A DNA stretch of 64,000 nucleotides from an uncultured Sphingosinicella sp. Its GTDB lineage: Bacteria > Pseudomonadota > Alphaproteobacteria > Sphingomonadales > Sphingomonadaceae. Under the pieces are notes generated by a model. The model made no database searches. It worked only from the letters and a program-made list of their open reading frames with translations, and was not told the origin of the DNA. The DNA is taken from contig CAYTMM010000005.1 of the NCBI GenBank assembly GCA_964438875.1, positions 14,968 to 78,967 on the forward strand, in the 5' to 3' direction. Positions 5,401 through 64,000 of this stretch are shown here, piece by piece (the stretch's first letter is position 1; the number at the start of each line of letters is the position of its first letter). Made by a program: the position numbers and the translations under genes.

Positions 5401-6617
5401 GAGGTGACGTTGCCCGCCACGCCGTAGACCACGTCCACCCGGTTGCTCTCCGGATAGGTCGCCCGGTTCGGGCGGTAACTCAGATCATAGGTGTAACTGG
5501 TCTGCCGGCCGAGCGAATCGGTGACGCTGGAGACGACCCGGCGCGGGCCGCCGTCCAGCCCATTGACGTCCGTATAGGTGTAGACCTGATTGTAGCTGTT
5601 CGGCCCCGTCACGGTCAGCGCGTTCCAGATCCACGTCTTGTGCGTGGCGCTCCAGTGCAGGTTGGTATAGGCGTAGTTCCAGGTAACGCCGTCGCGCGTA
5701 ACCGAGCCGACCACGGGGCCGCCGGAGTGGGTCGTAACCTGGATGCTGTCCGTGCTCTCGCCGGGCAGCCGCAGCGAACCACTGGGGGTCTCCACCTCGC
5801 CGGCAAATTTGTTGGTACACCCGTTACAGGTGTATATTCGCCCGCCCAGATCCGTGATCGTCGTGCCATCCAGGCTGTAGGTGAGCTGGCCCAGCGGGGT
5901 CGAAGGCTCGGACGTGCGGTAGATCGTCGCCTGGGAGGGCGCGGCCCAGCCCGGGGTCCACATCGTGTTGGAATGGTAGGAGATGGTGATGTGGTAGCCG
6001 AGATTGCTGCTGATCGTGGTCGGCCGATGGTAGTTCACGCCCGAGTCCAGCGTGGTCGCATAGCTGTAGCTGATGACCTCGCCGGTCGGATAGACCACGG
6101 ACGACGCGTAATATTGGAGATACGTTATATCTCCCGACACGGTCTGATGCTGCAGTTGGTCGAACGTCCAGAACGCCCCCGTCCCCTCTTCCCGGAAGGT
6201 GAGCGCCCAGGGCGAGAAGCTGGAGCCGGTGCCCATGACGCTGGTGCAGACATCGTCGAAAGCGCACTGAAAGCTTTCGGAAGTTCCGCGGCCGGTGTGG
6301 ATCGCAAAATTGCCTTCTGAGTAGCTTCCGAACGGGCTTATCCGTTGCCCATTCACATAAGGCGCCATGTTCAGCACCCGGTCGAACCGCAGATTGGGCG
6401 CGCCCGGCACTGACAAGGTCGGTATCGGAAGTTGGGTCTTGCCGGTGATGAGGTTGACCCCATTCTGGTCCTCCTCGACCCGCAAAGGCGAGATCACCTG
6501 GGGCGGATCCTGCGCCAAAGCCGGCGCGCCGCACAGCATAAGGGCGATCATGCCCAAGATAAGCCGCAGGACAAACCCGCGACCCGCCGCGACCCGGGCA
6601 ATCGCACCAGATACCAT
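2466..6617 (-). CDS. Rhs/YD-repeat polymorphic toxin with Sec signal peptide and Ntox28-like C-terminal toxin domain
   Basis: Many YD repeats; Rhs core [33 protein letters not shown]; hydrophobic segment after the core; tip [19 protein letters not shown]; N-terminal [19 protein letters not shown] signal. Start placed after a GGGG RBS. Confidence 0.9.
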
Positions 6618-6703
6618 TCCATCCCCCTTGGACGTCGTCACGCTAAGATCGGTGAACAACGGCATCGCCTCGCCGAGCCCGGCGCCAAGCTGCGGCCGGG
6701 CCA

Positions 6704-7252
6704 TCACCAGCAGTCTCCAGGCAGGATGTAGACGCCCAATATACCGTGCGACGTCGCCCCCAAACTGTCCTGGACGATGTAGGTGACCTGGACCCCGCCG
6801 GGCGTCGCACCAGCCGTGAACCGCACATTGGTCGATGATTCCGCATAGGCCGATCCGTAGGCCGGAACGATGCTATGGATGCCGACCAGGGACAGCGGAT
6901 AATTTCCTTCCGGATCGGTGTCGTTTGCGACCACGTTGACCGAGATGCTGGTGCATACATCCATCGACCCGCCATCGTCCGAATTTGCCACCGGGGGCTG
7001 ATTAGGCGGCGGCGGAGGTGGCGTGCCGCCCCCACCGCCAGCACCATCCACCACATAAGAGGAACGATTTCCGGCGGCATCGTAGGAGACCGCCGTCACG
7101 ATCCCATCATTGACCGTGCCGCTGCTGCTGGTCGCCACCAACCGCCCGAGCGCATCGTAAGTGTAGGTAACCGTCTCGCTGGCAATGCCTGCGCCATGGA
7201 GGCCGAGGGCACCCGCTGCCACACCGAGCAGATAGGCGATCTTCTTGTTCAT
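6704..7252 (-). CDS. Small secreted YD-repeat protein with Gly/Pro linker and Ig/cadherin-like C-terminal domain
   Basis: Signal peptide, YTYDALGRL...[26 protein letters not shown] linker, [11 protein letters not shown] and YIVQDSLGA motifs. Confidence 0.75.
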
Positions 7253-58904: not shown

Positions 58905-60128
58905 TCAGTGCAGCCCGCGCAATGCCGTAGGGCGATCGGACTCGATTGGGGTGATCCGGCCGGGCCGGGGCTGATCCGGCCGTCCGCGCGAGGTGATCGA
59001 TGTGACGACCCGATCGCGGCCGCCGGTCTTGGCGCGGTACAGCGCCGCGTCGGCCCGCGCGATCACGCCGTCCAACCCATCATCCGATCCCCGGCAGGAC
59101 GCGACGCCGAAGCTCATCGTCACACCGACGCCAGGATGGCCGGGCAGCGCGACCGTCGCCACTCCGGCGCGCAGCCGCTCGACGAAACGCTCGGCCCGCT
59201 CCAGCGCGAAGCCGGGCAGGAAGATAGCGAATTCCTCGCCGCCGATCCGCGCTACCAGCATGTCGTCATGCGCGCCGAGCCGCAGCGTGCGCGCCACGAG
59301 CCGCAACGCATGATCGCCGGCAGCGTGGCCATGCTGGTCGTTGATCCGCTTGAAATGGTCGATGTCACCGATCGCAATGCAGCCGGCATTGGACGCGCCG
59401 AGCCGCTCGGCAAGCGCTTCGCGGAAACCGCCGCGGTTGAGCAGGCCAGTCAGCGGATCGTGCCGCGCAAGACGGGACAAAGCTGTCGTCCGATCCGTCA
59501 TCAACAGGAACAAGCCGGACAGAGCGATGGCGAGGTAGAGAACGGGAACGCCGGTGATAAGCGCGGCGCGATAGGCCTCCCGCGCCGCCCCCTCGGCGAC
59601 CGGTCCGATCCGCAGCGCGAGCACCAGCAGAACCACTTCATAAACAATGAAGGCCAAAGCGATGCCGACGGACACTTTCTCCACCGTCGATCGGCGCCCC
59701 GGCCGGGCAAGAATGGCATGCGCCATCAAAGGCAGCATGATCAGCGCGCAGATCGGGATCAGCGCGAAGTAAAGCCCCATATGCGGCCACCAGATCCGCG
59801 TGGCGACCGCGCCGAGCATGACGGCGCCGACCAAAGCCGTCAGCAGGCCGGGATAGACGGGCAGGCCGCTGCGCTGGCGATAACCCGCCGTGCCAAGCAC
59901 GATCATCGCCGTGGCCGCCAGCGTCGATCCCGCCCACAATACCGGTGGCGCGCTGCCGATGAAGTTCGCAACGAGGTTGAGGCTCCACTGGACCGCACCC
60001 GCAGCGAAGCAGGCCGCCCAGGTCAGCGCATGGCTTGGTCGCGCCATCGTGGCCCAGGCCGCGAGAAACATCGCGCACATGACCGCGCTCAGCAGCATCA
60101 TGACGATCAGCAGGGACAATACGGCCAT
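58905..60128 (-). CDS. Membrane-anchored diguanylate cyclase
   Basis: Several N-terminal TM segments; DPLTGLLNR, DIDHFKRINDQHGHAAGD, GGEEF and ALYRAK motifs; no RxxD I-site seen. Confidence 0.92.
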   Translation of the reverse strand: MAVLSLLIVMMLLSAVMCAMFLAAWATMARPSHALTWAACFAAGAVQWSLNLVANFIGSAPPVLWAGSTLAATAMIVLGTAGYRQRSGLPVYPGLLTALVGAVMLGAVATRIWWPHMGLYFALIPICALIMLPLMAHAILARPGRRSTVEKVSVGIALAFIVYEVVLLVLALRIGPVAEGAAREAYRAALITGVPVLYLAIALSGLFLLMTDRTTALSRLARHDPLTGLLNRGGFREALAERLGASNAGCIAIGDIDHFKRINDQHGHAAGDHALRLVARTLRLGAHDDMLVARIGGEEFAIFLPGFALERAERFVERLRAGVATVALPGHPGVGVTMSFGVASCRGSDDGLDGVIARADAALYRAKTGGRDRVVTSITSRGRPDQPRPGRITPIESDRPTALRGLH

Positions 60129-60297
60129 CGCGCACCTATGCGGCGCGAAATCTTAGCAAAGCCTATACACCCGCGCGAAACGACCGCCTATTTCCATGCC
60201 GCGCGCGCCATTCTTTCATTGAGCATGCGGGTGCGGCGCAACCATCGGCGCCGCCGATCATTACGCTTCTGTCCCCAATCGAGGAGAGGAAGAGCTT

Positions 60298-60693
60298 ATG
60301 CGTATCGCATATCTCGCCGTCAGCCTGTCAGCCGCGGCACTGACCGCCGGATGCGCCACCTATGAAGGTGGGCGCAGTCATGGTTCCTATGACTGGAATC
60401 GGCCGGATCCCGCTTATGGCGGCTATTATGCCGATCGCTATTATCGAGACGATCGCCGCTATCAGGAACGCCGGCTCAGCCGCAACGACCGGATCTATCG
60501 CGGTCAGGACGGCCGATATTATTGCCGTCGCAGCGATGGCACGACGGGCTTGATCATCGGCGGGCTCGCCGGCGGCGTGCTCGGCAATGTGATCGCGCCG
60601 GGTGGATCGGAGACGCTGGGCACGATCATCGGCGCGGCCGCTGGTGCGGCGGTCGGGCGCGAGGTCGAGCGCGGCAACGCCCGCTGCCGCTAA
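60298..60693 (+). CDS. Glycine-zipper 2TM domain lipoprotein
   Basis: Lipobox LTAGC; YYCRRSDGTTGLIIGGLAGGVLG...GAAAGAAVGREV. Confidence 0.88.
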   Translation: MRIAYLAVSLSAAALTAGCATYEGGRSHGSYDWNRPDPAYGGYYADRYYRDDRRYQERRLSRNDRIYRGQDGRYYCRRSDGTTGLIIGGLAGGVLGNVIAPGGSETLGTIIGAAAGAAVGREVERGNARCR

Positions 60694-60781
60694 AATCTTG
60701 TCGTCCCCGCGTTAGCGGCTTGTAAACCATGACGGCCTAGAGTTCGCCTGTTGCCGTTTCATCCGGAGCGGGAGGTGGGAC

Positions 60782-60937
60782 ATGTCGAAGCTCAAGGCTT
60801 TCGCGGTACTGGTCATCGTCGCTTTCACGGTGGACATGGTGGCGTTCGACAGCGCTTATCGGCATAGCTGGACGCAAAGCGCCAGGCATGCGGCGCATCA
60901 GGTCGCAAACCTGCACTGGACCGGCTTCATCGGCTGA
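60782..60937 (+). CDS. Small membrane protein (51 aa) MSKLKAFAVLVIVAFTVDMVAFDSAYRHSW…
   Basis: GGAGG RBS, ATG, one hydrophobic segment; below the ORF-track cutoff. Confidence 0.55.
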   Translation: MSKLKAFAVLVIVAFTVDMVAFDSAYRHSWTQSARHAAHQVANLHWTGFIG

Positions 60938-61034
60938 CGCCGCCCGCCCCACGTTCGGTGCCGTTCGGCGGACTGCGCTTTACTCCTCCACAATCTGTGC
61001 GCTTTACAGACCGGCCGAGACAGGGGGGAGCGCC

Positions 61035-61415
61035 ATGACACGCCTGCCAACCGCCGCCACCATCGCATCGATTGCCCTTCTCGCCTCCTGCGGGCCGGGC
61101 AGCGCGTTCGACAACAGCTTCCGCGAATCCTATCGCGAAAAGGCGGTCGAGGGCTGCGTCCAGGGATCGCGCGCGGCCGCCGCGCCGCCCGGCGTCGATT
61201 TCCAGCGCATCTGCGAATGCGCCGTCGACCGGCATATGGAGGGCAAGAGCGCCACCGAGTTGATGGGCGAAGCCGACGATACCGCGCGCTCGGGCGCCCA
61301 GGACGCGACGATGCAGTGCGTCCGCGATCTGGTCCCGGGCGCAGCCGCCGCGTTGCCGGGCGGGAACGCGACGTCCGCCGCCGCGGACGCCCTCGGCGCG
61401 AAACCCGGCACCTGA
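61035..61415 (+). CDS. Lipoprotein with C...CxC...C pattern
   Basis: GGAG RBS; lipobox LASC; EGCVQG...ICECAVD...MQCVR. Confidence 0.72.
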   Translation: MTRLPTAATIASIALLASCGPGSAFDNSFRESYREKAVEGCVQGSRAAAAPPGVDFQRICECAVDRHMEGKSATELMGEADDTARSGAQDATMQCVRDLVPGAAAALPGGNATSAAADALGAKPGT

Positions 61416-61436
61416 ATCTTATCCTCGATATCCCCG

Positions 61437-61497
61437 CTATCCACAGGCCGGATTCGCAAGATTTCGCTTGGCGCGACTCGGATAACGGAGTCAGCCT
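61437..61497 (+). promoter_or_regulatory. Putative promoter of ncRNA candidate A
   Basis: TATCCACAGGC (61438) and TTGGCGCGACTC (61468), both shared with the ncRNA B upstream region; -10-like CAGCCT. Confidence 0.5.
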
Positions 61498-61503
61498 GCA
61501 ACT

Positions 61504-61950
61504 TCGCAGTCAGGAAGGATCGACCGGAAACGGACGATCGGAACTGAAAGCGGCCAGAGTGGAAATGGCGGACTTCCGCAAGGAAGAATGCCGAGAACGC
61601 GCTGGATGGAGGAGCGGAAAGAAGCGCGAGGCGCAAGCCGAACCCACTTTTCCAAATACTCCAGCGGACCGGATGTCCCCGGACGGAAGGAACGCACAAG
61701 GGATCATATCGAAGCTTCGACAGAGATTTGATCTCGGTCTGAAAGGCGATGAGGCAGCGATGCGTCGGAGCGTTTCAGGTCAGGGTACCGGACGGAGGTC
61801 GCAAGACCGTTCAGAAGGAACCCAAGGGACCGACCGGGGCCGCGAGGCCTCGGCCGGAACCTCTCCCGGGACGAGCCCAAGCCCTCACCGGCGCGGGATT
61901 CGGATTCGGGCGAAGTGGGGGCCGGCGGCGACGCCGGCCCTCATTTTCTT
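61504..61950 (+). ncRNA. Candidate long structured ncRNA A (~445 nt)
   Basis: GNRA-capped stems: CCG-GAAA-CGG, CTTCC-GCAA-GGAAG, GGC-GCAA-GCC, GGTC-GCAA-GACC, GGCC-GCGA-GGCC. 5' hairpin and terminator are shared with B. The 5' end is estimated. Confidence 0.6.
61914..61950 (+). terminator. Intrinsic terminator
   Basis: GGGCCGGCG-GCGA-CGCCGGCCC followed by TCATTTTCTT. Confidence 0.75.
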
Positions 61951-62072
61951 GAGGGGGCGTAACGTACGTTCCCTCGCGTCGCGAAATGTGACGCCGATGC
62001 CGACATCTGGTGCTGCGGTTATCAGGACGTAACGGGCGATTATGTCAAACTGACCCTGACGGGGCCTGTAGC

Positions 62073-62537
62073 TCAGGCGTCGCCAGGCGTTTCGACGACG
62101 ATCTCGCTCTTGAGCGAATTGGCGATGAAGCATTGCTCGTGCGCTTCGTGATGGAGATGCGCGAGTTCTTCCGCGGTCGGCGCGCGACCGGTGAAGACGA
62201 TCCGGGGCCGCAACACGATGCGGGTGACGCCCATGCGGCCCGGCGCGACCGCGCTCATGGTCCCTTCCGCATCGTCGCGATAGCTTGTGACCTCCAACCC
62301 CGCCTTGTGGGCGACCCAGAGGAAAGCGAGCATGTGGCAGGACGAGGCGGCGGCAACCAGCGCCTCTTCGGGATCGACCCCGGCCGGATCGGACAGCGGC
62401 ACGCGCACCACGTCGGGCGACGAGGAGCCGGGCACGATCGCGCCGCCGTCGAAGCGCCATTCGTGCCGCCGGCTGTAACGCCCGCTCGCGAAATTGCCGT
62501 CGGAAGACCAGTCGATCGTCGCGACATGCCTGACCAT
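62073..62537 (-). CDS. OsmC family protein
   Basis: DPEEALVAAASSCHML...HEQCFIANS two-Cys motif. Confidence 0.92.
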   Translation of the reverse strand: MVRHVATIDWSSDGNFASGRYSRRHEWRFDGGAIVPGSSSPDVVRVPLSDPAGVDPEEALVAAASSCHMLAFLWVAHKAGLEVTSYRDDAEGTMSAVAPGRMGVTRIVLRPRIVFTGRAPTAEELAHLHHEAHEQCFIANSLKSEIVVETPGDA

Positions 62538-63034
62538 CAGTCGACGACCAAGGCCTCGGCCTTGCGCCCCGCTGGAAAGAGATCGGCGCTGCTCGCCACC
62601 TTGCTCTTGGCGGGCGCCGAAGCGGCGGCCTTCGCGGTCAGCATATCGTTGGCCGCCGGCTCCGTGGCCAGCGCCGTGCGGCGCGCCAGACGCCCGTCGA
62701 TCCGTGCGCCGGCAGCGATACTAATCGTTTCATAGGTGACGTCGCCGGCAATCCGCCCGGTTGCCTCGACGATCAAGGTCGCCGCACTGACCGTGCCTTC
62801 GATCAGTCCGGCGATGCGCGCCTCACCCGAGGTGAGATCGCCGGCGATGATCCCGCTCTCTCCCTGACAGAGCTGGCCGCACCGGACATGCCCATCGATC
62901 CGCCCGTCGACATGGAGCTGCGCTGTTGTGGTGAGATCGCCGCTGATCACGACTTCCGGTCCAATGAAAGAGAGACCCGATGGGGACGATCTGCCGGTAC
63001 GCGGCGCCGACTTCGAATCCTTGCGTGAGAACAT
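62537..63034 (-). CDS. Polymer-forming cytoskeletal protein (bactofilin)
   Basis: SFIGPEVVISGDL...LHVDGRIDGHV...IAGDVTYETISIAAGARIDG; TGATG overlap with osmC. Confidence 0.9.
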   Translation of the reverse strand: MFSRKDSKSAPRTGRSSPSGLSFIGPEVVISGDLTTTAQLHVDGRIDGHVRCGQLCQGESGIIAGDLTSGEARIAGLIEGTVSAATLIVEATGRIAGDVTYETISIAAGARIDGRLARRTALATEPAANDMLTAKAAASAPAKSKVASSADLFPAGRKAEALVVD

Positions 63035-63134
63035 GCGGTCCCTCCTCGCTCGGGCGGGACTATTGCGCCTGCCTTACGACAGATCAAGCGCAAGGCGAGG
63101 AAATCGCGCGGCCTTTCAGGCAATAGCGTCCCCG

Positions 63135-63860
63135 ACAGCAATGGGGGCCGGCGTCGCCGCCGGCCCCCACTGTCCCGTCGCGGGTGGACACCAAGCCTGG
63201 GAGGCAAGGCAGTCCGCGAGGGCGGTTTCGAAACCCTGCCCGGACCGGGGGTCCTGGCGATGGCTTCCGGAGTCCCGTCGAAGCAGAACTTCGCAGGATT
63301 CCCCCGAGGCTCCCCGTCAAGGCCGAAGCCCTGGCGGTTCGCCGCTTGGCGGATTTGGAACTCGCGTTCCGCTTCTTGCCTTCCCGCCACCGCTGCCGAA
63401 GCTTTCGTGCCGGAGTGGCAAAATCCTTGGCCGAAGCCGCTGGTTCCGCCTGACGAGGCCATGAGCGAAGCTCCGGGTTCCCGTCGATTTCGCAGCTCCC
63501 GGGACAAGGCCCGGTCCTGCCCGACAATCCGTTCGGCCGAAGCCTCCCTTGTGCCGGTGGCGGTGCGTAAACCCGAAGGTCCCGCTTTCCGCCGAGCGGT
63601 TCCTGAACCCCGAAGGATTCCTGATCCCGCCTGTCCGGTCCCTTTCGCCCGAAGGCCTCCGGTTCCGGGTGGGCGCTTCACGAAGCCTGCCGCTTTCGCT
63701 TCCGCCAAAGGACAAGTCCGCAGCTTCCGCCTGGCGGCGGCTTCGTCAGCCGCCCCGCCTCCGCTCAGCACCTTCCGTCTGGTGGGACGCAAGGCCTCCT
63801 CGCTCGGGCTGTGGCCGGGAAGGCTCTCGTCCGTTGCCGGTCGATCGTCTCTGCCACGAA
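63135..63860 (-). ncRNA. Candidate long structured ncRNA B (~725 nt)
   Basis: Seven C-UUCG-G motifs on the minus strand only (CCGAAG at 63323, 63396, 63431, 63537, 63573, 63610, 63649). 5' hairpin and terminator are shared with A. Ends are estimated. Confidence 0.62.
63140..63171 (-). terminator. Terminator-like hairpin, 31/32 identical to 61914-61945
   Basis: AGTGGGGGCCGGCG-GCGA-CGCCGGCCCCCATT on the minus strand; weak U-tract. Confidence 0.65.
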
Positions 63861-63864
63861 TCGA

Positions 63865-63914
63865 AAGCTGTCATGAAAAGTGAGTCGCGCCAAACGGATT
63901 CAGCCTGTGGATAA
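63865..63914 (-). promoter_or_regulatory. Putative promoter of ncRNA candidate B with perfect DnaA box
   Basis: TTATCCACA (63914-63906), TTGGCGCGACTC (63893-63882), 17-bp spacer from TTGGCG to a -10-like CAGCTT. Confidence 0.5.
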
Positions 63915-64000
63915 TGAGGAAAACGGGAATAAGTGCGCCTGCCTGCATGCACATCCCTTACGCGCGCGGCTTGCGGCGCGCGTCGCGCCCGCATAAAGGA

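Follow-up and report, generated by a model that had tools for sequence, protein, structure and literature searches.

Two paralogous loci in Sphingosinicella predicted to encode large structured non-coding RNAs behind DnaA-type boxes

What is encoded by two long, hairpin-rich intergenic regions with nearly identical ends, found on either side of an osmC-bactofilin gene pair in an uncultured Sphingosinicella sp.? The window, that is, the whole stretch of 64,000 nucleotides that was analysed, contains the related loci A (approximately positions 61503-61950, forward strand) and B (approximately 63858-63132, reverse strand). An earlier note on this DNA had proposed that both are independently transcribed and belong to an undescribed family of large modular structured RNAs with conserved ends. 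The four pairs of sequence blocks on which this proposal was built were all located in A and B. They are TATCCACAGGC (61437-61447 on the forward strand in A, 63914-63904 on the reverse strand in B), TTGGCGCGACTC (61468-61479 and 63893-63882 on the respective strands), a 5' hairpin identical at 19 of 20 positions with a GAAA loop in A and a GCAA loop in B, and a terminator hairpin with a GCGA loop, for which the 32-nt segments 61914-61945 and 63140-63171 are 97% complementary and thus match at 31 of 32 positions when each is read on its own strand. The blocks are indeed shared by the two loci, but the two outermost ones are promoter DNA rather than RNA sequence. None of the four has a further occurrence in the 3.28-Mb assembly, and the interiors of A and B have no match elsewhere in this genome or among plasmids and phages. 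With just these two copies present, the genome contains neither additional copies nor a repeat family of this kind, and no match supports a plasmid or phage origin.

Comparison with the catalogue of known RNAs did not identify the pair. At the gathering threshold no match was found in the whole window for any of the 4227 models of Rfam 15, which include OLE, ROOL, GOLLD, raiA, 6S, SRP, RNase P, tmRNA and the group I/II introns. The models were searched in both gathering and E-value modes, and the only match with E < 1 within positions 60000-64000 was a single 15-bit chance match; 15 homologous loci from several genera were also without an Rfam match. A literature search found no description of the A/B RNA family. 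The lack of any rRNA, RNase P, tmRNA or 6S signature, reported previously from inspection, agrees with the absence of Rfam matches and with the presence of the last three RNAs elsewhere in the genome, where RNase P (301.6 bits, contig C20), alpha_tmRNA (208 bits, C130), SRP RNA (59.3 bits, C14) and a full-length 6S RNA (45.7 bits, C3, just under the gathering threshold of 46.4 bits) were detected. Since all four are accounted for, the possibility that A or B is a divergent form of one of these housekeeping RNAs was ruled out.

Several features of the two loci point to RNA structure on one strand. The strand-specific tetraloops that had been described held up on counting: CUUCGG occurs seven times on the sense strand of B and not once on its antisense strand, and GNRA hairpins with a stem of at least 3 bp number seven on the sense strand of A, where at least five had been claimed, versus one on the antisense strand. 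Words of this kind are enriched (CUUCGG 9.5-fold, CGCAAG 5.6-fold), and the z-scores of the predicted folds against shuffled sequences are -4.79 for A and -3.89 for B on the sense strand versus -1.75 and -2.71 on the antisense strand. In the alignment of 24 A-type sequences, 96.1% of cells are paired, compared with 27-53% when the partners are slid, and compensatory changes affect 35 of 95 pairs, compared with 7-16 pairs when slid; the observed values were reached by none of 500 shuffles. The B-type alignment contains five sequences, with compensatory changes at 41 of 221 pairs.

The same alignments carry no signature of translation. Gap runs are multiples of three in only 9 of 69 cases for A and 5 of 41 for B, most indels are 1-2 nt long, and 88% of pairwise indels would shift a reading frame. 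Variability does not follow a 3-nt period, and none of the frames stays open across the sequences. The ORFs spanning the two regions (61217-62032 and 62947-63792) are present in the window as listed before. Long open frames arise over A and B because the sense strand contains only 12-13% U (A.23, C.29, G.36, U.12), and as judged from this composition the spanning ORFs are artefacts. The non-coding reading of the earlier note is thus borne out by indel lengths, lack of periodicity and unstable frames, and its claim of an undescribed RNA family by covariation in both types, the absence of Rfam matches and the rejection of coding. At the level of sequence comparison, it is established that the RNA structure is under selection, that the sequence is not coding and that the promoter architecture is conserved. 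On such evidence, and without transcript data, A and B are genes for large, heavily folded non-coding RNAs.

RNA A (61503-61950, forward strand) would be ~450 nt long, with a 5' end inferred to within a few nucleotides, and folds in prediction into ~12-14 hairpins, seven of which are GNRA-capped. Its 5' hairpin GATCGACCGG-A-AACGGACGA (61518-61537, forward strand), with the core CCG-GAAA-CGG, is helix 2 and has compensatory changes at three pairs. The block CGGAAACG, located ~10% along the length, is shared by 26 of the 51 non-redundant members. It is followed by the module GGAAAGAAGCGCGA-GGC-GCAA-GCC-GAACCCACUUUUCC (61616-61653, forward strand), in which a stem and a GNRA hairpin accompany a large conserved internal loop; it is invariant in 24/24 A-type sequences. 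AAGAAGCG and CCCACTTT are found in 20 and 18 of the 51 non-redundant members, respectively. The near-invariant hairpin GGGACCGACCGGGGCC-GCGA-GGCCUCGGCCGGAACC (61826-61860, forward strand), or helix 17, contains a 2x2 purine internal loop (GA/AA) and shows 91% identity across the genus. At the 3' end, the terminator hairpin (61914-61950, forward strand) is helix 20, a 14-bp stem with compensatory changes at 9 of 14 pairs, capped by GCGA and followed by UUUUCUU. RNA B (63132-63858, reverse strand; ~725 nt, 5' end inferred) has ~20 predicted hairpins, six of them UUCG-capped (from the seven CUUCGG words) and several GNRA-capped. It begins with the 5' hairpin GATCGACCGG-C-AACGGACGA (63827-63846, reverse strand) and ends with the terminator hairpin at 63140-63171 (reverse strand), after which the U tract is only AUUGCUGU, compared with UUUCGUUUU in most relatives. 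Neither of the two promoters and neither terminator was flagged by a strict scan of E. coli type. The transcripts probably start near 61503 in A and 63858 in B, the ends being inferred from promoter and terminator.

The family is present in 57 of the 61 sampled genomes of the same genus, mostly in two copies, and a family match was obtained in about 20-22 of 112 sampled genera of Sphingomonadaceae; as far as sampled, it is restricted to a subset of this bacterial family. Its members range from ~320 to 1050 nt in length and have the same ends.

A common promoter arrangement precedes both RNAs. In A, three abutting DnaA-box-like 9-mers, TTATCCTCG, ATATCCCCG and CTATCCACA (61419-61445, forward strand), lie ahead of a core at 61451-61479 (forward strand) that comprises GATTC (61451-61455), the -35-like TTGGCG (61468-61473) and GACTC (61475-61479), and the -10-like CAGCCT (61492-61497, forward strand) follows 18 nt after the -35 element. 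In B, the three abutting 9-mers are TTATTCCCG, TTTTCCTCA and TTATCCACA (63906-63932, reverse strand), and the core (63865-63901, reverse strand) consists of a GANTC site (63897-63901), the -35 element TTGGCG (63893-63888), GACTC (63886-63882) and the -10-like CAGCTT (63870-63865); here the box array is exactly 10 bp nearer to the -35 element than in A. The core block gattccgCTTGGcGCGACTCGG is conserved family-wide, the family core promoter is sigma-70-like (TTGGCG, 17-18 nt, cAnnTT), and the A in the second position of the -10-like hexamer is invariant in 36/36 aligned members. For 54 non-redundant members we obtained the box consensus TTATCCcCG-aTATCCnCg-TTATCCACA, in which every position of the third box is at least 91% conserved, and a bimodal distance between boxes and -35 element (19-20 or 28-30 bp). 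Each of the 54 members has one to three GANTC sites, with a varying central N, in the stretch from the third box to the end of the -35 block; the extraction favoured blocks ending in GANTC. Many family members were gathered with a pattern that contained the boxes, so that the universality of the boxes is partly a matter of construction; the box consensus and the third box also occur in homologues found only via their 3' halves. The TTAA-N7-TTAA box is absent from the A and B promoters.

These promoters share with DnaA-regulated promoters a conserved TTATNCACA-type box and the use of the same operator at replication genes, in the absence of binding data. At a distance of ~100 nt, the identical triple array was found in unrelated bacteria upstream of dnaB in five gut alphaproteobacterial MAGs, upstream of dnaG in a Rhodospirillaceae MAG, and upstream of DnaB_2/DnaD-type genes in Firmicutes. 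From these occurrences we infer that expression of A and B may be DnaA-dependent and replication-coupled, although neither DnaA binding nor a response has been shown. Both DnaA and GcrA are encoded in this genome. The third box of B is a perfect DnaA box, one of only seven in the assembly, and another perfect single box precedes dciA. Several observations speak against the involvement of DnaA: the seven perfect boxes genome-wide are not above chance (6.2 expected), boxes 1 and 2 carry 2-3 mismatches to the consensus, and one triple array elsewhere precedes ATP sulfurylase rather than a replication gene. The upstream region of dnaA in this genome has no canonical box and, within two mismatches, just one weak site. 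The possibility that the Firmicutes arrays adjoin dnaA was rejected, since tblastn with the DnaA of this genome gave only weak AAA+ matches at four loci and the arrays precede DnaD-type genes.

Our preferred reading, to which we assign a probability of about 0.6, is that A and B are paralogous free-standing genes for large, stable structured ncRNAs that have a DnaA-type operator and act in trans, with neither transcript nor DnaA-binding data available. The operator would consist of three head-to-tail DnaA-type 9-mers, two degenerate and one consensus, positioned one or two helical turns upstream of a sigma-70-like core promoter with one to three GANTC sites, which are CcrM methylation sites. 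DnaA is presumed to bind the array and to activate transcription from this upstream position in a manner dependent on the face of the helix; the RNA would then be made at high DnaA activity, alongside replication genes, and the methylation state of GANTC or GcrA could modulate its expression. The predicted product is a chain of GNRA- or UUCG-capped hairpins and purine internal loops enclosed between the conserved 5' hairpin and the 14-bp terminator hairpin, and being U-poor, G-rich and capped at both ends, it seems to be an RNA built to persist. Its action may be in trans, as a scaffold that binds protein or self-assembles, rather than by base-pairing or as a leader. Our best guess, a stable ribonucleoprotein or scaffold RNA working in trans, relies on anatomy and on analogy; no partner protein or target has been identified.

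Alternatively, the pair may represent a sponge of the CsrB/RsmZ or CrcZ type, in which repeated GGA or GGAACC would titrate a global RNA-binding protein, a possibility that we regard as unlikely but worth keeping in mind. It would fit with the strand bias of GGA (27 sense versus 5 antisense in A, 33 versus 13 in B), the 4.9-fold enrichment of GGAACC, the variation in length between conserved ends and the two paralogues in most genomes, as paralogues and a variable number of modules are typical of sponge RNAs. However, no CsrA gene (PF02599) was found in the 95%-complete assembly, in which positive controls were detected, and a sponge for CsrA itself was ruled out on this ground. The hairpins are capped by GNRA or UUCG loops and not by GGA, and GGAACC/GGGACC is placed in stems, 2x2 purine internal loops or linkers, as examined in helix 17 and the projected A fold. 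In addition, several long blocks are invariant and unrepeated, more in keeping with a specific fold than with an array of repeats.

The genomic neighbourhood suggests another explanation, namely that both are cis elements, B serving as a long 5' leader or attenuator of bactofilin-osmC and A forming a structured 3' UTR for the lipoprotein gene that precedes it. B is located upstream of, and on the same strand as, the genes for bactofilin (62537-63034, reverse strand; Pfam PF04519, E = 4.4e-21) and an OsmC-like protein (62073-62537, reverse strand; PF02566, E = 2.4e-16), which are neighbours outside the RNA, and the order RNA, bactofilin, osmC is retained in eight related loci. The weak U tract of the B terminator makes some read-through plausible, and the promoter boxes of A start 4 nt past the lipoprotein stop codon. 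The placement of the pair around osmC-bactofilin that had been pointed out is, however, true in this genus and not beyond it. In other genera the RNA is followed by genes unrelated to one another, by tandem RNA genes or by convergent genes; from reading the sequences, with no Pfam check, we take the downstream genes to include an SDR, GTP cyclohydrolase, CorA and transporters. Two RNA genes stand in tandem in some genomes (L078, L139), and the RNA keeps its own conserved promoter behind different upstream genes. A and osmC are convergent, with no gene after A on its own strand, and the B terminator is separated from the bactofilin start by CTTGATC (63082-63088, reverse strand), an element conserved in a nine-locus alignment that resembles a promoter and is probably the -35 element of bactofilin's own promoter. 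Both of these features support free-standing genes, and we find a role in cis improbable. The independent transcription claimed before gains comparative support from the differing downstream genes, without discrete transcripts having been shown. A conserved ORF downstream of A-type loci was also considered, but its 16-member cluster probably reads a convergent gene in an antisense frame.

The boxes might instead function as DNA, either as a datA- or DARS-like titration or reactivation site or as part of oriC, the hairpins being incidental. DnaA-type boxes are clustered at both loci, and the DARS sites of E. coli also contain three boxes. Yet RNA base pairs are under selection hundreds of nucleotides away from the boxes, and in some genomes (G007, G447) the copies are 0.8-1.8 Mb apart, so that oriC cannot hold both. 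The region lacks AT-richness, and no GC-skew switch is seen along the contig; oriC was rejected on the distance between copies and the missing skew switch, and a DNA-level element in general appears very improbable. Finally, we give next to no credence to protein-coding ORFs or to arrays of repetitive extragenic palindromes or MITEs, for although long open frames cover A, B and most of their homologues and hairpins are many, the open frame follows from the low U content and switches strand and phase between homologues, and the interiors are unmatched elsewhere.

If A and B are free-standing genes for stable trans-acting RNAs, as we prefer to think, one may speculate, without much confidence, that this DnaA-activated, methylation-sensitive and long-lived RNA pair is part of the replication or cell-cycle circuitry. 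The RNA could be co-regulated with the helicase, its loader and primase, and a ribonucleoprotein or RNA-only assembly might report on, or feed back on, replication initiation. Such a pair, if real, would bring a large structured RNA into a DnaA regulon for the first time. Bacterial RNAs of >400 nt that are supported by covariation and lack a catalogue entry are rare, and OLE, GOLLD, ROOL and raiA each opened new RNA biology. To these the A/B family adds a testable regulatory handle that they are missing, an operator like those that precede replication genes, which predicts the timing of the RNA and suggests phenotypes in initiation timing, cell cycle and cell division. Because the family has cultured carriers, among them Sphingosinicella soli DSM 17328, Sphingomonas yantingensis DSM 27244 and S. 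pituitosa NBRC 102491, these predictions are directly testable.

Among known systems, Caulobacter CcnA, attributed to Beroual et al. in 2022, is reportedly a ~180-nt RNA located at the origin that depends on CtrA and base-pairs with the ctrA and gcrA leaders. CcnA, too, is an ncRNA from Alphaproteobacteria, and its promoter is under a master cell-cycle regulator, as is inferred for A and B; the A/B family, at 450-1050 nt, has no fixed chromosomal place and carries DnaA-type boxes in place of a TTAA-N7-TTAA box. Parallels with CsrB/RsmZ and CrcZ are the multiple paralogues, the differing numbers of hairpin modules and the enrichment of a short purine motif; the A/B family differs in the lack of a CsrA gene from this genome, in the position of the motif outside apical loops and in its long invariant unrepeated blocks. 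DnaA-regulated replication promoters of the dnaA, nrd and dnaB type resemble the A and B promoters in having arrays of such boxes adjoining a sigma-70 promoter, but the product here would be a large ncRNA and not a replication protein. The OLE, ROOL, GOLLD and raiA-motif RNAs are similar in being free-standing and several hundred nucleotides long, with intricate folds, GNRA tetraloops and conserved internal loops; they too came to light through covariation, and what they do is at best partly known. ROOL, GOLLD and OLE form homo-oligomeric complexes (PMC12286853), and raiA is abundant and has knockout phenotypes (PMC12968392, PMC10861870). In contrast to these RNAs, A and B match none of their Rfam models, belong to a different host lineage, the Sphingomonadaceae, occur as two paralogues per genome with a strongly modular, length-variable interior, and are preceded by an operator of the DnaA-box type.

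The two stretches A and B are conserved RNA genes, neither coding sequences nor repeats. A, on the plus strand, is flanked by a small lipoprotein gene (61035-61415, +) and by an OsmC-like gene (62073-62537, -); B, on the minus strand, is flanked by a bactofilin gene (62537-63034, -) and by a cytochrome c gene, which is divergent from B and starts just beyond the window end. Without expression data, the transcript of A is predicted to run from about 61503 to about 61950, and that of B from about 63858 to about 63132. Several blocks follow one another in the same order on both sense strands: a block of ~60 nt in which both TATCCACAGGC and TTGGCGCGACTC are found, a hairpin of the form GATCGACCGG-N-AACGGACGA (match 19/20), and a 32-nt GC-rich terminator hairpin with a GCGA loop (31/32). 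The two short motifs and the two hairpins agree with those reported in the earlier note; no further copies of the blocks were found elsewhere in the 3.28-Mb assembly. The tetraloops counted in that note are indeed strand-specific, with CUUCGG occurring seven times on the sense strand of B and never on the antisense strand, and GNRA hairpins seven times against one in A. The ends that it described as conserved belong to the RNA as far as the hairpins are concerned, whereas the two outermost shared blocks are promoter DNA. Sense strands also exceed antisense strands in GGA counts (27 vs 5 in A, 33 vs 13 in B) and in fold stability relative to dinucleotide shuffles (z-scores of -4.79 vs -1.75 for A and -3.89 vs -2.71 for B).

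In a BLAST search of 40 relatives, A had homologues in 21 of the 24 genomes from its own genus; several of them matched via the 3' half only, and the promoter block was present at the expected upstream distance in all. With members added by a pattern scan, using one genome per species, ~80 family members of 320 to 1050 nt were extracted. The RNAalifold structure of the A-type alignment (24 sequences, 547 columns) contains 95 pairs, 35 of which show compensatory double changes, compared with 7-16 after a shift of the 3' partners by 1-3 columns. The same displacement reduces the share of paired cells from 96.1% to 27-53%, and 500 column shuffles never attained any of the observed values. Only five sequences make up the B-type alignment, with compensatory changes in 41 of 221 pairs. 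These comparative data support the initial reading of A and B as two members of an undescribed family of structured RNAs. Open frames spanning both genes had been a worry, and long frames do exist in most family members, but their strand and phase change, and they are explained by the low U content (12%) of the sense strand. Coding is ruled out for both genes by the gap runs (9 of 69 distinct runs divisible by three in A, 5 of 41 in B), by flat variability across codon phases (0.178/0.193/0.166 in A, 0.152/0.153/0.136 in B), and by stops in every alignment-anchored frame across the homologues.

A short conserved hairpin, CCG-GNRA-CGG, marks the 5' end of both types. Their 3' end is formed by a 14-bp hairpin, (R)CAGUGGGGGCYGGYRGCRAYRCCRGCCCCCAUU, which has compensatory changes in 9 of 14 pairs of the A-type alignment and in most cases precedes a U-rich tail. 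The interior is a variable chain of hairpins capped preferentially by GNRA loops in the A type and by UUCG loops in the B type; among 51 non-redundant members, CUUCGG, CGCAAG and GGAACC are enriched 9.5-, 5.6- and 4.9-fold over dinucleotide expectation. The words GGAACC and GGGACC pair with each other and thereby form 2x2 purine internal loops, exemplified by GG-GA-CCG over CGG-AA-CC in the hairpin at 61826-61860 (+). This near-invariant hairpin is the second of two conserved blocks found in all A-type sequences; the other, GGAAGAAGCGCGAGGCG...AAGCCGAACCCACUUUCC (61616-61653, +), is invariant, and its words occupy the same relative position in ~40% of the non-redundant members, distant ones included. 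Low U content, tight folding and end hairpins should confer resistance to RNase E, Rho and 3' exonucleases. The family RNA combines these properties, a hairpin at both ends included, with a high G content, from which we infer that it is built to persist.

Upstream of every member lies an array of three abutting 9-mers of DnaA-box type with the consensus TTATCCcCG, aTATCCnCg and TTATCCACA, the third of which is the classical DnaA box; within the window, B has a perfect copy of it and A a copy that matches at 8/9 positions. The block gattccgCTTGGcGCGACTCGG, located 3' of the array, provides a -35-like TTGGCG together with GANTC sites, one to three in number and varying in their central base, and is followed after 17-18 nt by a cAnnTT hexamer, the A of which is invariant in all 36 aligned members. 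The distance between the array and the -35 block is bimodal (19-20 bp, as in B, or 28-30 bp, as in A), the two forms being one helical turn apart, as expected for an upstream activator that must face polymerase. We propose with moderate confidence, by inference and without binding data, that DnaA would bind the array and activate transcription of the RNAs. They may thus be made together with replication functions, and GANTC methylation or GcrA could add cell-cycle timing, a suggestion held with similarly moderate confidence. Genes for both DnaA and GcrA are present in the genome.

Non-sphingomonad matches from a global scan provide an independent comparison of such arrays. Three head-to-tail copies of TTATCCNCN are located ~100 nt upstream of the dnaB helicase gene in five gut alphaproteobacterial MAGs; this triple array also precedes the dnaG primase gene in a Rhodospirillaceae MAG and DnaB_2/DnaD-type replication-initiation genes at three loci in Lachnospiraceae and other Firmicutes, a single exception being an array that precedes ATP sulfurylase. 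This placement before replication genes lends independent support to the inferred role of DnaA as the regulator. The genome itself contains seven perfect TTATCCACA boxes compared with 6.2 expected by chance, so that the count proves nothing, and their placement before genes is merely suggestive. These boxes are found in the promoter of RNA B (-), upstream of the helicase loader gene dciA (C95:5329, -; Pfam E = 7.5e-14), a putative mraZ (C104:1986-2125, -; two boxes nearby, gene read from sequence without Pfam support), rpsB (C57:2723), a UPF0262 gene (C154:946) and a YbjN-proC pair (C55:7111), and at a contig end (C85:10909). Of the seven, with that of RNA B counted among them, six have G directly 3'. 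The rpsT-dnaA spacer on contig C16, upstream of dnaA, is strikingly AT-rich (e.g. TGTGTAAATATTTGATTACAAAGATAAAAAATGC, TTTTTATTTTTTATGATGC), and canonical DnaA boxes are almost absent from it.

Among 61 same-genus genomes, 57 carry the terminator signature, mostly twice and with a range of one to three copies; its reversed control gave no match in these genomes. The two copies either converge at a distance of 2-7 kb, as in the window, or are separated by 0.8-1.8 Mb, a spread that excludes an origin-bound element; GC skew shows no switch along the contig. Of the 112 genera sampled within the family, 22 matched a sequence profile of the promoter and 5' region (~20 of them strongly and over the full length), and a strict promoter pattern was matched by 15 of 96 genera sampled across the order, nearly all from the same family. 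Carriers include Allosphingosinicella, with most matches, Sphingosinicella, Sphingomonas, Sandarakinorhabdus, Polymorphobacter and Sphingomicrobium. A typical 412-nt member adjoining osmC was found in NZ_JBHTDC010000001.1, labelled Enterovirga sp. (a Methylobacteriaceae genus); it groups with two sphingomonad copies and could reflect a naming problem, contamination or transfer. Overall, the data establish structured, non-coding, independently promoted genes, usually two paralogues, with a conserved promoter architecture.

Within the genus, the B-type RNA, bactofilin and osmC follow in this order on one strand in eight loci, and the A-type RNA is often convergent on osmC. A role of B as a cis-acting leader cannot be fully excluded because the U tract after its terminator is weak. 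Downstream genes are unrelated in other genera, and in some Sphingomonas genomes two RNA genes are arranged in tandem; these observations identify the family as a free-standing gene rather than a leader. These tandem paralogues (6231-7024 in locus L078 and 6612-7397 in L139; ~350-365 nt each, ~75 nt apart) are in direct orientation and both carry a box array and a terminator of their own, in contrast to the convergent pair in the window. Between the B terminator and bactofilin, 40-60 nt before the bactofilin start, lies CTTGATC (63082-63088, -), which is kept at the aligned position in five related loci and is probably the -35 element of a separate alphaproteobacterial sigma-70 promoter of bactofilin-osmC. 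Just upstream of the RNA locus (58905-60693) are genes for a GGDEF diguanylate cyclase, which has a membrane domain at its N-terminus, and for a glycine-zipper lipoprotein; no link of either to the RNAs was found.

A and B may encode RNAs that act in trans as stable scaffolds, a proposal made with low confidence. Its weaker variant, a CsrB-like sponge, is disfavoured by the lack of a CsrA gene in the 95%-complete assembly and, for the helices examined, by the location of the enriched motif in helices, not loops.

The Rfam comparison suggested in the earlier note revealed no known family: with Rfam 15, neither the complete window, searched at gathering thresholds, nor any of 15 homologous loci, drawn from several genera, gave a match, and nothing meaningful emerged at E < 1 in the A/B region. 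RNase P, tmRNA, SRP RNA and full-length 6S RNA are encoded elsewhere in the genome, nothing similar to A or B was found in plasmid and phage collections, and the literature searched contains no description of the family. It is best filed as a new class beside the orphan large structured RNAs, with an inferred link to DnaA that is unusual and testable. ROOL, GOLLD and OLE are self-assembling, and the RNAs described here may possibly behave alike, or else be protein-bound.
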